64,000 nucleotides of DNA, from contig VGAZ01000001.1 in the NCBI GenBank assembly GCA_016870615.1, positions 6,481-70,480 on the forward strand. Direction: 5' to 3'. This DNA comes from Actinomycetota bacterium (GTDB taxonomy: Bacteria > Actinomycetota > Humimicrobiia > Humimicrobiales > Humimicrobiaceae). Position numbers and translations under genes: made by a program. The notes beneath the pieces were generated by a model. It saw only the letters and a list, made by a program, of their open reading frames with translations, had not been told where the DNA came from and made no database searches. How positions within the stretch are numbered: the stretch's first letter is position 1; every line of letters begins with the position of its first letter. Shown here one piece after another: positions 10,603 to 15,658 of the stretch.

Positions 10603-11319
10603 TTAAATCTTCTTCATTGCGTTTGAAAGCACAATGGCATCTGCAACTTCCCTCATGGTTTTACGGTTATCCATTGCAAATTTCTGTATTTTCTTGAATG
10701 CTTCATCCTCAGAAATAGAAAGTTCCTTCATTATTACGCCCTTAGCTTTTTCCACTGATTTTCTTGTTTGTAGCTCTTCTTTTATAACCTGTGTCTCTAC
10801 AACAAGCCTGTAATTCTCGATAACTATTGCAGCCTGGTCAGCAACAGTTGAAAGTATGCTTATTTCATAGTCAGTGAATTTGTGGGGCGATGAAGTATAA
10901 ATATTTAAAGCGCCAATTACTTTGTTTTTCAGGTGCAGCGGCACAGAAAGCATGGAAACCAGCCCTTCTTTGACTGCAATGTCCTTGAATTTATAATTTT
11001 CACATTCCAGTATATTTTCTACAGCCAGGGGCTCATTCTCAAGCACGACTTTTCCCGCTATACCTTCCCCCACTTTTAATGGGTTTTTATTTATGTATTC
11101 CTTGCTTATGCTTTGTGTAGCTTTAATTGTCAGCTCCTGTTTTCCAGGATCCAGCAGCATCAGTGAGCATATTTTTGAGCCCAGGGTTTCAGCAGTAACA
11201 TTTACAATGAGCTTTAAAATATCATCAAGGTACAAATCCGAAGTAATTGCTTCACTTATTTTAAGAAGGGCATTTACAATTTCCCTTGAGCTGCTGTCAT
11301 TTCCAGCGCCAGCCGGCAT
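10603..11319 (-). CDS. GAF and ANTAR domain-containing RNA-binding antiterminator-type regulator
   Basis: A GAF-like N-terminal domain is followed by a C-terminal ANTAR helix set (VEKAKGVIMKELSISEDEAFKKIQKFAMDNRKTMREVADAIV). Confidence 0.7.
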   Translation of the reverse strand: MPAGAGNDSSSREIVNALLKISEAITSDLYLDDILKLIVNVTAETLGSKICSLMLLDPGKQELTIKATQSISKEYINKNPLKVGEGIAGKVVLENEPLAVENILECENYKFKDIAVKEGLVSMLSVPLHLKNKVIGALNIYTSSPHKFTDYEISILSTVADQAAIVIENYRLVVETQVIKEELQTRKSVEKAKGVIMKELSISEDEAFKKIQKFAMDNRKTMREVADAIVLSNAMKKI

Positions 11320-11549
11320 TTATTTATCCTTTTTTTAAAATTAAATAAAAAGTTTCAAAGGTTATTATACAATATATAATTTTAAATTTGGATTATTGAT
11401 TTTTATAAAAGCCGCACAAAAAAGCCGCAGGCAAAGCTTTACAAAAAACCCGGATAAAGTTAAAATTCATGATTGCTGACTGATAATTTAACTTCAGCCA
11501 GGATAAAATGTTGCTGTTACCGGCAGCAGGGTTTAAAATCACCCTTTTA

Positions 11550-11625
11550 GGCGCATTCGTCTAGTGGCCCAGGACATAGCCCTCTCACGGCTAAAACAGG
11601 GGTTCGAGTCCCCTATGCGCTACCA
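11550..11625 (+). tRNA. tRNA-Glu (anticodon CUC)
   Basis: Folded by hand into a cloverleaf: 7-bp acceptor stem GGCGCAU/AUGCGCU, D-arm GUCU..GGAC, anticodon stem UAGCC/GGCUA with loop CUCUCAC, T-arm AGGGG-UUCGAGU-CCCCU, and an encoded CCA. It closely resembles bacterial tRNA-Glu. Confidence 0.85.
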
Positions 11626-12326
11626 GTACATTTTGATAAAAAATCAAAAAGTAATTTCGAATTGTTTTCTAGATTTCTTAAGATTGTTTTTTGCCATTTT
11701 TTTGGTAGGGAATTAAATATATCTGAAATCTTTTTTTTCTGTGTTTTGTTGCCTAATAAAAATTCTCCGATTTCTTTAGCCGATGTTAAATCCCGTAGCT
11801 GCTTTTCCTTACTTGAGCGTCTTTCAAATATGATAAATTTATGGAGCACATACGCAGCAGGTTCAGGAACTACAACTGTCATATCCAGGTATTTAACTTT
11901 TATTGTATGAGATTGAAGAAGATTTAGAAATCTTAAGCCCTGGGCATTAATATGTAATTTTGGAATCCTGTATGGCTCGTTGCCTTTGCCCTTTCCAAGA
12001 TCGGCAGTTAAAAATTCCAGCTCAAGTTCCGGATGAACATATTTAGTATAGCCAGTCATATAATTTTGAAGAGGTATGAAATCTAAATCTTCTAATATTT
12101 CCGGTATATTTATCTCTTTTTTCATCCTGGGAGGATTTGGAATTAAAAAATCAATATCTAAAGTCCTAAGAAGTGGTATCTCGGGAGCGTTGGAAAAATA
12201 ATCTTTGTAGAAATAGTGGCACCAGCTTCCAATAAGAATAATATCTTGCAGAACGCCTGCATTATGAAGTGTATTTAATATTTTGAAAAACAGATTACTT
12301 TTTCTTTTCACTGGATATCTTTTCAA
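11613..12326 (-). CDS. nucleotidyltransferase-fold protein (AbiEii-like GS...DIDF motif), putative toxin or defence effector
   Basis: LIGSW...RTLDIDFLIP resembles the hG[GS]...[DE]h[DE]h pattern of the minimal NTase fold. The gene overlaps the upstream small ORF by 32 nt and abuts the 3' end of tRNA-Glu. Confidence 0.4.
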   Translation of the reverse strand: MKRYPVKRKSNLFFKILNTLHNAGVLQDIILIGSWCHYFYKDYFSNAPEIPLLRTLDIDFLIPNPPRMKKEINIPEILEDLDFIPLQNYMTGYTKYVHPELELEFLTADLGKGKGNEPYRIPKLHINAQGLRFLNLLQSHTIKVKYLDMTVVVPEPAAYVLHKFIIFERRSSKEKQLRDLTSAKEIGEFLLGNKTQKKKISDIFNSLPKKWQKTILRNLENNSKLLFDFLSKCTGSA

Positions 12327-12609
12327 GTTTTAATACATCTCTTTTAACCTGGTTGAATAGCTTTTGAAGCTTTCTTCTTTCTTTTATGCTGCCTTCAAGC
12401 TTAGAGATTTCATCTTCATTTAATTTTCCTAAATATTTAAAAACATTTTTCTTATCATCTCTATAATTTAGATAATAATAAACATGCCCCTTTATTTTCT
12501 TTTTTATCAAGCTTCCTTTTTGATACTTCTTTAATTTATTCTCATAGTTTTTTTTAAGGTTAATTAACCTGTTTAACTCTTCTTTTAAAATACCATTTAA
12601 AACTTCCAT
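12295..12609 (-). CDS. small Lys-rich coiled-coil protein, putative partner or antitoxin of the NTase-fold protein
   Basis: It is 104 aa and translationally coupled to the NTase gene. It has strong coiled-coil character and a KGHVYYYLNYRDDKKNVFKYLGKL segment that could be a wing/HTH. I recognise no family. Confidence 0.35.
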   Translation of the reverse strand: MEVLNGILKEELNRLINLKKNYENKLKKYQKGSLIKKKIKGHVYYYLNYRDDKKNVFKYLGKLNEDEISKLEGSIKERRKLQKLFNQVKRDVLKLEKISSEKKK

Positions 12610-12624
12610 AATTACCCGCTAATT

Positions 12625-12717
12625 TTACCAGACAATTTATTTTTTTTAATATGCTGTCTGGTAAATTCTTTAACGTGTTACCAGACAATTATTAATTTAT
12701 TATTATATGTCTGGTAA
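12625..12717. promoter_or_regulatory. two tandem copies of a 10-bp-arm palindrome TTACCAGACA-N20-TGTCTGGTAA, a candidate operator upstream of the small-protein/NTase operon
   Basis: Arms lie at 12625-12634 with 12655-12664 and at 12678-12687 with 12708-12717. Both AT-rich spacers are 20 nt. A further AGTTTACAACTT / AAGTTGTAAACT palindrome lies near 12795-12850. Confidence 0.5.
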
Positions 12718-12953
12718 CTAATGTCAATATGGGAATAGGTATATTTGAATAGGTATGTCTATATTTTATTATATTTTATATTTTACTTTAATTCATAGTT
12801 TACAACTTATTTAAAATCTCAATTATTAAGTTGTCAACAAGTTGTAAACTATTCTGTGTATTATTGCCTGTCATTACTTAAGAATAACTCCCTGTATATT
12901 TTAATTTCTTAATAATTAGTTTGAAATATTGTAACTTGGGGGCTACCAGTTAT

Positions 12954-13298
12954 TTATTCATAATATTTTAAAATTCTGTCTTTACTGTGATTACTCTGTT
13001 TACCTTTAAAATATATTTCAATAAATTCTATTTTTTGTTCTTCTGTAAAAAATGCATAGATTATCCTGATACCACTATTTGAGCCACTGCCTTTTAGAGA
13101 TCTACAACGGAATTTTTTGACTTTAAAAATTTCAGTTTTTATACCAAGATCACTGATTGGAAAGACCCTTGATGGAAAACCCCTTGGGTGCTTATTTAAA
13201 AATTGCTTTAATAAATTCAAATCTTCTTTCAGGCTTGGATATTTCTTTAATAGTTTTTCAAAATCTTTTTTAAACTCCGAAAGACTATCAAACTCCAT
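12954..13298 (-). CDS. RelE/ParE-superfamily type II toxin (HigB-like)
   Basis: It is 114 aa. The N-terminal FKKDFEKLLKKYPSLKEDL and C-terminal GIRIIYAFFTEEQKIEFIEIYFKGKQ segments match the RelE/ParE fold pattern. It lies immediately downstream of the XRE-Panacea gene, with a 3-nt gap. Confidence 0.55.
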   Translation of the reverse strand: MEFDSLSEFKKDFEKLLKKYPSLKEDLNLLKQFLNKHPRGFPSRVFPISDLGIKTEIFKVKKFRCRSLKGSGSNSGIRIIYAFFTEEQKIEFIEIYFKGKQSNHSKDRILKYYE

Positions 13299-13301
13299 AT
13301 A

Positions 13302-14060
13302 CTAATACTCCCTGACTGAGTGCATATCTTTTCTGTAGAAAACAGCTTCATAATCAATAATCTCAAGGTCAGGAGTAATTTCATAGGGTATATCCTCATG
13401 TGAATAATCTTCGATTTGATTAGCGTTCATCGAGGATAACCTTTCAATCACATTATCAATAATTTCTTTATCTCTAGCAGTTAATAAGCTTATATCAGCC
13501 CTTACCAATGGAATGTATTTTATTTGCCTGTAATTATGATAATCAATACTCGTCTTTAAGATTTTTTTACTTTCCAGTAACTCTTTTTCTATTTCTTCAA
13601 AATGGCAGGGAGCCGGGCCATGCTCTATTTTTCTATATAATTCTCCTGTTAAGTACTCCTCATTTAACTCATAGTAATCAAAATCAATAAAGTACAATAA
13701 TTTATATATAACAGTTTTTCCAACATTAATTTTTGAACCACATTTTTCTACTATGTAAAGTAAGATTTGCTTAAACTTTCCTTTATTAAATATAGGTTTT
13801 TCTTCTTTACTTTTTAAATTTAATTCTTTATCACATTTATTCTTGTAAAGTAGTTCCTCTATGGATAAATCAAACAATTTTGCAAATAATGCCAACTCAT
13901 AACTGGAAACCTCCCTTTTGCCTGATTCAATTAAAGATATTGCAGACCTTGGTATATTCATATTTTCTGAAAGTTTTTCTTGAGAATACCCAAATTCTTC
14001 TCTATATTTTTTTATGAGTTCACCTAATTCTTTATTATTATTTATTTCTAGATTATGCAT
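13302..14060 (-). CDS. HTH-XRE plus Panacea (DUF4065, SocA-like) domain antitoxin
   Basis: An N-terminal XRE HTH (GYSQEKLSENMNIPRSAISLIESGKR) is followed by a Panacea-domain block (GKTVIYKLLYFIDFDYYELNEEYLTGELYRKIEHGPAP). Confidence 0.65.
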   Translation of the reverse strand: MHNLEINNNKELGELIKKYREEFGYSQEKLSENMNIPRSAISLIESGKREVSSYELALFAKLFDLSIEELLYKNKCDKELNLKSKEEKPIFNKGKFKQILLYIVEKCGSKINVGKTVIYKLLYFIDFDYYELNEEYLTGELYRKIEHGPAPCHFEEIEKELLESKKILKTSIDYHNYRQIKYIPLVRADISLLTARDKEIIDNVIERLSSMNANQIEDYSHEDIPYEITPDLEIIDYEAVFYRKDMHSVREY

Positions 14061-14269
14061 TTTACCTCCTAATACTTGAAATAATACAATATGTTAGAAA
14101 TAAAGGCAAGTATTGTTAGAAAATAAAACAAAATAATTGTATAAAAATTGATATTATATTAATAAGAACTTCATAACATGCAGTGACGCATTCTGCTTAT
14201 TTATTGCAGTTTTCAATTTAATATAGGTTTTAAGGCAGTATTTGTCCTATCTGGTTTTTGCTTATATTA

Positions 14270-15076
14270 TCAGTAAACCCTTTTTTTCCTTGCAAGCTGT
14301 ATTATAATGCCAAGAACTATCAAGGCCATGCCGGTTATAACTGTTATTATTATGCCAAGGGCAGGGGTGCTTGCATCAGAAAGCCTTTTTAAAAGAATTC
14401 CAAGAAGCGACCATACAACAACAAGGCAATAGAACATATCATTTCTTGTAAATATCACAAGCAGCGCAATTATTATTCCCACAGCAATTACAAGAACTGC
14501 CCAGAACTGCTCACTTAAATTAAATCCGTTCCAGCCAATGTCTACAAGCAGGGCAGTGACATTTGCAATTGTTGCAATTGTAATCCAGCCCATGTATACA
14601 CTGAAGGCAAGATGCGCAAGCCCTTTTTCAGCTCCGCCTGCATCAGATTTTCCTATTCTTAACCTCAGATATATTGACAGCAGCATTATAAAAAGAAGTA
14701 CCATAAATATAAGGGAGAGCCACAAAATTTCATAATGCCAGGCAAAAATCCAGCCAATATTAAATAGTGAAGAAAGAAAAAACAGTATGCCGATTTTTTC
14801 CAATATGCCTACGCCGCCCGATCTTTTGCTAAAGGCAATTACCAGCTGGTATATAATATAAATACCAAGCAATAAATAAATAATGCCCCATATTGAAAAG
14901 GTTATACCTGCAGGTACAAATAAGTTCGGGTACTGGTCAGAAAGCTGGCCTGTTGTTTTATTATTTATTGGTAGTATTGTTGCAAGAGCATTTACTGCCA
15001 CTGTTGCTATAAAAGCAATTAGGTTTAACAGGGACAAAAATATTTTCGCCTGCCTGGAGTATGCGCCATTACTCAT
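14270..15076 (-). CDS. polytopic membrane protein, N-terminal region TspO/MBR-like (tentative)
   Basis: It has eight or more predicted TM helices. The DQYPNLFVPAGITFSIWGIIYLLLGIY segment resembles the TspO ligand-binding helix region, but the assignment is weak. Confidence 0.3.
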   Translation of the reverse strand: MSNGAYSRQAKIFLSLLNLIAFIATVAVNALATILPINNKTTGQLSDQYPNLFVPAGITFSIWGIIYLLLGIYIIYQLVIAFSKRSGGVGILEKIGILFFLSSLFNIGWIFAWHYEILWLSLIFMVLLFIMLLSIYLRLRIGKSDAGGAEKGLAHLAFSVYMGWITIATIANVTALLVDIGWNGFNLSEQFWAVLVIAVGIIIALLVIFTRNDMFYCLVVVWSLLGILLKRLSDASTPALGIIITVITGMALIVLGIIIQLARKKRVY

Positions 15077-15469: not shown

Positions 15470-15658
15470 ATGATTAAAAGAATTAAAATATTTAAAGATT
15501 ATTTTACCGGGCAAAAAGGCGCTTCTGCCACTGAATACGGGGTAATTATTGCAGGGGTGGCAATTGCACTTATCTTTGTTTTCTTTACAGTCACAGGAGC
15601 TTTTAACAGGGGATTTGAAGTAATTGTAAATACTCTTAATAATGCAGTAAACAGGTAG
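15470..15658 (+). CDS. flp: Flp family type IVb pilin
   Basis: The 62-aa product carries the Flp motif G-A-S-A-T-E-Y-G-V-I-I-A followed by a hydrophobic helix. It is preferred over the overlapping minus-strand ORF. Confidence 0.65.
   Translation: MIKRIKIFKDYFTGQKGASATEYGVIIAGVAIALIFVFFTVTGAFNRGFEVIVNTLNNAVNR

Follow-up and report, generated by a model that had tools for sequence, protein, structure and literature searches.

A GSU2403-family nucleotidyltransferase and its small DUF6788-like partner beside a tRNA-Glu gene: a possible autorepressed toxin–antitoxin-like module

Nucleotidyltransferase (NTase) toxins such as MenT and AbiEii are actively studied for their tRNA-poisoning chemistry and for an unusual auto-phosphorylation switch induced by their antitoxins. 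Few phage-defence systems are more abundant than AbiE, in which AbiEi autoregulates via two inverted repeats. Residues S78, D80, K189 and D211 of MenT3 and S67, D69, K171 and D186 of MenT4 matter for the toxin (PMC7450476), as do T39, D41, K137 and D152 of MenT1 (PMC11375011). The Ser or Thr two residues ahead of the catalytic Asp is the site of antitoxin-induced auto-phosphorylation in MenT toxins (PMC7450476, PMC11375011). A gene pair resembling these systems is described here from an Actinomycetota bacterium of the family Humimicrobiaceae (GenBank assembly GCA_016870615.1, contig VGAZ01000001.1, positions 6,481 to 70,480). This stretch of 64,000 nucleotides is referred to as the window, and coordinates are given within it unless another locus is named. 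The pair consists of a gene for a 104-aa protein (12295–12609, minus strand) and, immediately downstream, a gene for an NTase-fold protein (11613–12311, minus strand). Judged from sequence comparison, the chance is about even that the two form a toxin–antitoxin (TA)-like, autorepressed module of the MenAT/AbiE kind with a new antitoxin/repressor.

The NTase belongs to the Pfam family PF12281 (NTP_transf_8), which it matches with 84.5 bits against a cut-off of 26.3 (E 1.4e-23) and which also matches 29/29 aligned homologues; databases label the homologues "GSU2403 family nucleotidyltransferase fold protein". An earlier reading of the DNA letters, referred to as the original prediction, could name no family for either protein, but the NTase falls into PF12281/GSU2403 and its partner is DUF6788-like. 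Both PF12281 and DUF6788 are named database families without a described function. The GS...DIDF signature noticed in the original prediction is genuine and is conserved among 270 members of the family: G28 (100%), S/G29 (100%), T50 (99%), D52 (100%), D54 (99%), E/D99 (98%), K158 (100%), R165 (98%), K170 (99%), [KR]173 (95%) and D174 (98%). The window protein carries G28-S29, T50-x-D52-x-D54, E99, K158, R165, K170 and R173-D174. The Pol-beta NTase signature, namely G-[GS], DxD and a third carboxylate, is conserved in the family.

The length of the NTase was first given as 237 aa, which corresponds to a start at TTG 12326 (11613–12326, minus strand). On contigs with an identical 104-aa gene and an NTase 97–100% identical, gene callers place the start at GTG 12311. 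The GTG start produces a 17-nt overlap with the 104-aa gene, whereas the TTG start would imply 32 nt. A 17-nt overlap also occurs in other phyla, for instance in an Omnitrophota contig, and at many further loci. The protein is therefore probably 232 aa long.

The AlphaFold2 (AF2) model of the NTase (pLDDT 92, pTM 0.89) shows a bi-lobed NTase fold that resembles the solved MenT structures. When the model is compared with solved structures, the values, listed as given, are 12.0 for the Paracoccidioides NTase-like antigen 5uvd, 11.5 for MenT1, 9.6 for MenT4, 9.5 each for ANT(2'') and TglT/MenT3, 9.4 each for TM1012 and JHP933, 9.0 for LnuA and 7.7 for AbiEi. Foldseek concurs, assigning MenT1 a probability of 1.0, and the nearest characterised bacterial structures are toxins. 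In the NTase, 106 residues separate the T50-x-D52 motif from K158, and D174 follows after 16 more. Thr50, present in 99% of the family, sits two residues N-terminal of D52, which is the position of the phospho-acceptors T39 of MenT1 and S78 of MenT3. The suspected resemblance to AbiEii toxins holds for the MenT/AbiEii-like fold, and the spacing of the motifs suggests that they correspond as well; it does not extend to a sequence match with PF08843 or the AbiEii models of PADLOC. The protein is very probably an active, MenT-related NTase, as predicted from its conserved residues and its model.

HEPN-MNT systems, CD-NTase/SMODS proteins and the enzymes ANT(2'') and LnuA have the Pol-beta core in common with the NTase. 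An ANT- or Lnu-like enzyme that modifies antibiotics or other small molecules, with the 104-aa protein as its dedicated repressor, would share this core and is nevertheless highly improbable. The structural matches are limited to the common NTase core (131–153 aligned residues), while the family has an additional C-terminal helical lobe with a K...R...K..[KR]D motif, typical of MenT/AbiEii and absent from ANT/Lnu enzymes. Genes of the latter lack an obligate coupled or fused partner, and the hosts of the NTase are mostly uncultured sediment and groundwater anaerobes.

Two further candidates were rejected. The comparison with CD-NTase and SMODS proteins of CBASS systems, proposed with the original prediction, revealed no resemblance: the Foldseek match to CdnD is at chance level (E 0.9–1.2, probability 0.03–0.04), PADLOC gives no match and there is no effector gene. 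A HEPN-MNT assignment was dismissed, as neither the partner nor the products of neighbouring genes contain a HEPN domain that Pfam or PADLOC detects.

The AF2 model of the 104-aa protein (pLDDT 92.9) is composed of a helix (residues 2–26), a three-stranded antiparallel sheet (33–61) and a second helix (65–103), and the β-sheet is the most conserved part. The gene is real, as originally predicted. The label "coiled-coil protein" fits its product less well, since a helix/β3-sheet/helix fold is better seen as that of a putative β-sheet DNA-binding autorepressor. Precomputed matches to PF20586 (DUF6788; PF20586.4) exist for an identical protein (P0121) and for nearly all homologues. In a local scan with PF20586.3, the window protein is unmatched and 8 of 30 homologues match below threshold (best E 0.014). 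The protein may be a weak relative of DUF6788, as far as these profiles indicate. Neither AbiEi, MenA nor COG5340 is matched by it in Pfam, NCBIfam or PADLOC, and no HEPN or other toxin-like domain is found in it with Pfam and PADLOC. NCBIfam and PADLOC searches return nothing for either member of the pair, and sequence and profile searches of the PDB with both proteins yield nothing meaningful. A similarity exists to the Arm-type/AP2 β-sheet domains of integrases (PF13356, Arm-DNA-bind_3), with which the small protein shares a three-stranded antiparallel sheet followed by a helix. Its motif G-x-x-Y-x-Y-L-x-x-R-x-x-x-K-x-x-F-x-Y-[LIV]-G resembles the Arm-type consensus, and one homologue matches PF13356 weakly (E 0.028).

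Four exact copies of the half-site TTACCAGACA (counting both orientations) lie within 93 bp upstream of the 104-aa gene, and one other exact copy is present in the 64-kb window. They form two 40-bp palindromes of the type TTACCAGACA-N20-TGTCTGGTAA, with 10-nt arms and 20-nt spacers, located 53 bp apart. The proximal palindrome (12625–12664) is found 16–55 nt upstream of the start codon of the 104-aa gene, and the distal one occupies 12678–12717. The best sigma-70-like promoter candidate of the region, according to a consensus scan only, is on the minus strand at 12699–12727 and agrees with the consensus at 11/12 positions (TTGACA, 12727–12722; 17-nt spacer; AATAAT, 12704–12699). The distal palindrome spans its -10 box and the promoter spacer. 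Because the palindromes cover the -10 box and the leader, the small protein is likely to be the repressor of its own operon. Autoregulation by palindromic operators at the promoter, a feature by which TA modules are recognised, is suggested by this arrangement.

Such operators recur at most related loci. Within the 150 nt upstream of the small gene, 87.5% of loci contain exact inverted repeats of 9 nt or more, compared with 2.4% of shuffled controls. A register-aware search detects palindromes of the form TT-N5-ACA-N(~20)-TGT-N5-AA in 73/79 related loci, most of which have two, with a spacer of exactly 20. In their central 5 bp, the palindromes form classes that are specific to lineages (ACCAG, GCCTA, GCCCA, AACCT, ACACT, ACCTT and others), and the operator classes of homologues include that of TTGCCTAACA. 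Covariation with operator class was ranked for 279 variable columns, 91 from the small protein and 188 from the NTase. The top two are columns 48 (β2) and 35 (β1) of the small protein, and its column 57 (β3) is eighth; overall, small-protein columns score higher than NTase columns in a statistic that leaves phylogeny aside (Mann-Whitney p 0.009). At column 35, TTACC is accompanied by I or V, TTGCC and TTAAC by S, and TTACA by K. At column 48, N accompanies AG, Q accompanies CT and M accompanies TT.

A scan of one genome per species identified 76 loci with the separate-gene form. They span Actinomycetota, Atribacterota, Omnitrophota, Spirochaetota, Desulfobacterota, Nitrospirota, Elusimicrobiota, Fibrobacterota, Acidobacteriota, Bacillota, Planctomycetota and Margulisiibacteriota, along with two archaeal metagenome-assembled genomes (MAGs), and most hosts are uncultured anaerobes from sediments and groundwater. 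The NTase gene is directly preceded on the same strand by an overlapping or abutting homologue of the small gene in 74/76 loci, and the loci represent more than 12 phyla of bacteria and archaea. Clustering at 50% identity divides the family into about 2,000 clusters (E <= 1e-3). The neighbours of the pair differ in every lineage and are mostly housekeeping genes, sometimes genes of TA type (ParE, AbiEi_4, DUF6036). A compact, translationally coupled bicistronic unit maintained in variable contexts is what would be expected of a TA module. It is not what a housekeeping NTase would suggest, an outcome that would have spoken against the original prediction: the pair is patchily distributed over more than 12 phyla, plasmids and prophages, and its neighbourhoods are unrelated, the pair itself always forming a self-contained unit. 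Two copies of the pair are arranged in tandem on a contig of a Leptospirales MAG (L028, 3–2729).

Disruptions are spread unequally over the two genes. The NTase is frameshifted, truncated or fragmentary next to an intact small gene in about 17–18 of the 76 loci; the reverse is seen once (L031), and 3 of the 76 show damage to, or loss of, both genes. Gene lengths alone predict that 69% of single disruptions fall in the NTase, and the binomial estimate for the observed asymmetry is about 0.008. Ascertainment is not the source of the asymmetry, as the loci were searched for with patterns from within the NTase. A decaying toxin gene beside a retained antitoxin gene is a general sign of TA modules, and the count is consistent with it, assembly errors in MAGs being a caveat.

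The same count bears on a reversal of the roles. HEPN-MNT systems use a minimal NTase as their antitoxin. By this precedent, the NTase, whose active site is strictly conserved, might silence a toxic small protein by modifying it. This is very improbable: neither a HEPN nor another toxin-like domain is found in the small protein, and where the NTase gene decays the small gene is the better retained of the two, contrary to what a toxin gene would show. Furthermore, the small gene is upstream and its product likely reads the operators, and fusions place the small protein N-terminal to an intact NTase.

Partner and NTase are separate in the window and in the 76 genome loci, and they form one polypeptide on 446 plasmids. 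Natural fusions of the two also exist among close relatives (P0064, 348 aa; P0317). The more distant homologues on alphaproteobacterial plasmids are single proteins of 338–364 aa with a small-protein-like domain at the N-terminus. Their C-terminal 240 residues align with the NTase profile (hhalign probability 99.1, E 4e-19), and their residues 31–91 align colinearly with the β-sheet of the small protein and the helix after it (hhalign E 3.2e-4, probability 38.7). The fused form is found on 446 plasmids of PLSDB (e.g. NC_011895.1, 13660–14709; NZ_CP017945.1, 157031–158125) and at the loci L094–L099. Just upstream of the fused plasmid genes, two palindromes stand in tandem, each with a spacer of about 12 nt, and plasmid copies sometimes adjoin replication genes or integrases. 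On the Marinibacterium plasmid pLA6_009, CGTGTGCAAC-N12-GTTGCACACG occurs twice ahead of the fused gene, which adjoins the gene of the plasmid replication initiator. In P0313 (327 aa), a C-terminal NTase fragment precedes a full NTase in an apparent circular permutation, which is probably an assembly artefact or a read-through of tandem copies.

The fusions are one reason to consider a non-toxic, self-regulated enzyme, which is the main rival explanation and has a modest probability. The DUF6788-like protein would then be the transcription factor or DNA-targeting subunit of a benign accessory NTase engaged in nucleic-acid repair or modification, signalling or stress adaptation, and the split form would be the two-subunit version of an ancestral fused protein. 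Full-length fused forms are frequent and stable on the 446 alphaproteobacterial plasmids and chromids, and the fused genes keep their operators. A systematic deletion study of the Sinorhizobium meliloti megaplasmids reportedly found only four addictive loci, none of them of the GSU2403 family. However, a benign enzyme would not be expected to lose its NTase gene far more often than the small gene, and its distribution would hardly be so patchy and mobile, including prophage and tRNA- or tmRNA-adjacent sites. No conserved metabolic or repair neighbours are found in any lineage. Self-repression via a double operator combined with translational coupling is typical of toxic cargo, and the closest characterised bacterial structures, as mentioned, are toxins.

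The mobile contexts raise a further possibility, phage defence by abortive infection as in AbiE. The small protein, or the N-terminal domain of the fused form, would sense infection and translation would be shut down; the fused forms that exist would be cis-autoinhibited effectors, comparable to the fused CapRel-type systems. The AbiEii/MenT-like fold and the neighbouring TA modules agree with such a role. So does carriage on a prophage beside head genes, beside serine recombinases and on conjugative plasmids. In the IMG/VR sequence UViG_3300014656_005795 (L092, 103–4668), the pair is found beside genes for a lambda-family portal, an S49 prohead protease and the head-decoration protein D; it is a moron-like insert carried in a (pro)phage. 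In L093, the pair adjoins two serine recombinases and an XRE regulator. These are the only two loci of the pair in IMG/VR, and none of 50,697 GenBank phage genomes contains a homologue. PADLOC is also blank for the pair, and its neighbourhoods are mostly housekeeping and not defence islands. Phage defence as a dedicated function of the pair is improbable.

Recurrence beside tRNA genes, for which the original prediction had suggested a check, is seen in part: in 5/60 loci, a tRNA gene or, in two cases, a tmRNA gene is located at most about 400 nt from the pair, whereas recurrence within defence islands is not apparent from the mostly housekeeping neighbourhoods. The tRNA genes concerned are tRNA-Pro (L046), tRNA-Leu (L068) and tRNA-Glu (L016). 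A tmRNA gene, a classic island integration site, lies within about 80–390 nt of the pair in a Clostridia MAG (L020, 6779–7131) and in Candidatus Euphemobacter (L027, 4895–5247).

Should the pair be a TA-like module, it could work as follows. The small protein would dimerise via its two long helices and read both palindromic operators with its β-sheet, as the comparative evidence indicates. Binding over the -10 box and the leader would tightly repress the bicistronic operon. The small protein may in addition bind and neutralise the NTase, as translational coupling of the genes and fusion of the two proteins in many relatives would suggest. When freed, the NTase would add nucleotides to RNA by means of its G-S/T-x-D-x-D/E/K...R...K..[KR]D site, by analogy with MenT1, MenT3 and MenT4. 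The likeliest target would be the 3'-CCA ends of tRNA, which would block aminoacylation, translation and growth. Antitoxin-induced auto-phosphorylation of Thr50 is a plausible additional off-switch.

Several observations weigh against this TA-like reading. The choice of tRNA as the target is drawn purely by analogy and is doubtful even if the module is toxic. The equivalence of the NTase and MenT motifs is inferred from spacing and overall fold and not from a residue-level superposition. PF08843 (DUF1814/AbiEii) is found in 0/29 family members in Pfam even at E <= 10, no AbiE model of PADLOC matches the pair, and the lack of homologues in GenBank phage genomes has been stated above. The common single-polypeptide fusions are hard to square with addiction via a labile antitoxin and would equally fit a non-toxic DNA-binding enzyme. 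The decay count uses MAG assemblies, in which frameshifts can be errors, and the covariation of operator and protein was calculated without regard to phylogeny. The open literature on PF12281, NTP_transf_8, GSU2403, DUF6788 and DUF6036 contains nothing functional that could be found; one unrelated paper cites the GSU2403 locus tag and is not about function.

The setting of the pair in the window can be described in more detail. All features named in the original prediction, that is, the tRNA-Glu gene, the two gene pairs and the 13-nt overlap with the tRNA, are present at their predicted positions. The tRNA-Glu gene (anticodon CTC; 11550–11625, plus strand) encodes its CCA and is detected by ARAGORN and by Rfam (RF00005, 60 bits). 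Its 3' end including the CCA is overlapped convergently over 13 nt by the stop codon and the last four codons of the NTase gene. Apart from the tRNA, an Rfam scan of 11300–14400 gives no genuine match; the distal operator palindrome gives rise to spurious "mir-8" hits at 12669–12728 in both orientations, whose scores (E 0.04 and 0.55) fall far short of the gathering threshold. Both predicted TA-type modules are located within a low-GC islet (12000–14260), where the GC content is 0.23–0.30 at about 12000–14250, compared with a level of about 0.40 (about 0.38–0.47 in the flanks). The islet beside tRNA-Glu measures about 2.7 kb.

The flanks of the islet encode an FBA aldolase, a GAF-ANTAR regulator, a membrane protein, a Flp pilin and PlsY. 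The GAF-ANTAR protein, an RNA-binding antiterminator-type regulator, is encoded just past the tRNA gene at 10603–11319. On the other side, a membrane protein of 268 aa and a Flp/Fap pilin of 62 aa (15470–15658) are encoded, and neither these nor the regulator are related to the NTase pair. A search around the islet for an integrase, or for the tRNA 3' end repeated directly as an att-type site, found neither. Because of the missing integrase and tRNA duplication and the housekeeping-type flanks, the locus is a small two-module islet and not a defence island. The "classic defence-island context" ascribed to it was therefore overstated, all the more as PADLOC is blank for the pair.

The gap of 344 nt between the two modules contains a second repeat cluster (12795–12852), made up of an inverted repeat with 22-nt arms, ATAGTTTACAACTT...AAGTTGTAAACTAT, and tandem AAGTTGT(C/A)AAC. 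No copies of the cluster occur elsewhere in the 64-kb window. Possible roles are those of a terminator or of an orphan operator.

The second module consists of a gene for a 252-aa protein (13302–14060, minus strand), predicted to be an XRE-HTH plus Panacea (DUF4065/SocA) antitoxin, and, 3 nt downstream, a gene for a 114-aa protein (12954–13298, minus strand), predicted to be a toxin of the RelE/ParE superfamily similar to HigB-2. The assignment of the antitoxin in the original prediction was right, both of its domains being above threshold: HTH_3 (E 3e-13) and SocA_Panacea (PF13274; E 7.3e-16, 59.5 bits against a cut-off of 25.7). No Pfam model matches the 114-aa protein above threshold. The RelE/ParE fold proposed for it is supported by the profile of its homologues, which matches HigB-2 of Vibrio cholerae in the PDB (5ja8/5ja9; E 2.5e-4). 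PF06296 (RelE) is matched weakly by 5/27 homologues, and JGI labels some homologues as RelE or YafQ. HTH-PanA antitoxins paired with mRNA-interferase-type toxins have been described by Kurata et al. (PMC8832971). The second module resembles PanAT and HigBA-2 in its order of an N-terminal XRE HTH and a Panacea domain, followed by a small toxin of the RelE superfamily. It differs from PanAT in that the toxin remains below the Pfam thresholds; the comparison with PanAT covers the architecture of the module. On these sequence matches, it is an ordinary PanAT-type type II TA module, separate from the NTase pair.

The separation of the two modules follows from the related MAG locus L016, which keeps the pair and lacks the Panacea module. 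Its NTase is 74% identical, the synteny with tRNA-Glu, GAF-ANTAR and FBA is kept, and the tRNA-Glu gene lies 59 nt from the NTase gene. In another related Actinomycetota MAG (L012, 775–960), a 62-aa fragment with 79% identity to the XRE-Panacea antitoxin is located just upstream of the pair, apparently all that is left of the second module after decay.

Nothing in these results overturns current concepts. PF12281 and DUF6788 were already known as named families that are functionally blank; new are the pairing of the partners, the conserved and diversifying operator, and the split and fused forms. The locus points to a separate and sizeable family, of which members are present on hundreds of rhizobial and roseobacter plasmids. 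The comparative data provide a defined operator, a candidate protein–DNA recognition code, a candidate phospho-acceptor residue and natural split and fused forms. If the NTase is toxic, the family would extend the MenAT/AbiE paradigm and offer a compact set of repressors and operators with naturally diversified specificities. If it is not, it would still be an unannotated, tightly self-regulated enzyme that is common on symbiosis plasmids.

Among fused TA proteins, CapRel-SJ46 and EzeT are known examples. The alphaproteobacterial fusions are similar to them in uniting a putative neutralising or DNA-binding domain and an NTase domain in one polypeptide; the order of the domains and their folds are unrelated. 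The closest comparison is with MenAT and AbiE. The NTase has a conserved [S/T]-x-D ... K ... D pattern that, by its similar spacing, probably corresponds to theirs, including a Thr at the position of the phospho-acceptor, and the pair shares with them a partner gene directly upstream and inverted repeats ahead of the operon. It differs in lacking a detectable sequence match to PF08843 or the AbiE models of PADLOC, and in its operator, which is a palindrome of 10-nt arms and a 20-nt spacer present twice. The partner, which in many relatives is fused to the N-terminus of the NTase, is neither a wHTH-CTD protein of the AbiEi/MenA3 type nor MenA1, but an unrelated 104-aa protein of the helix-β3-helix type. 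The family combines what appears to be the same catalytic signature with a completely different and very small partner.

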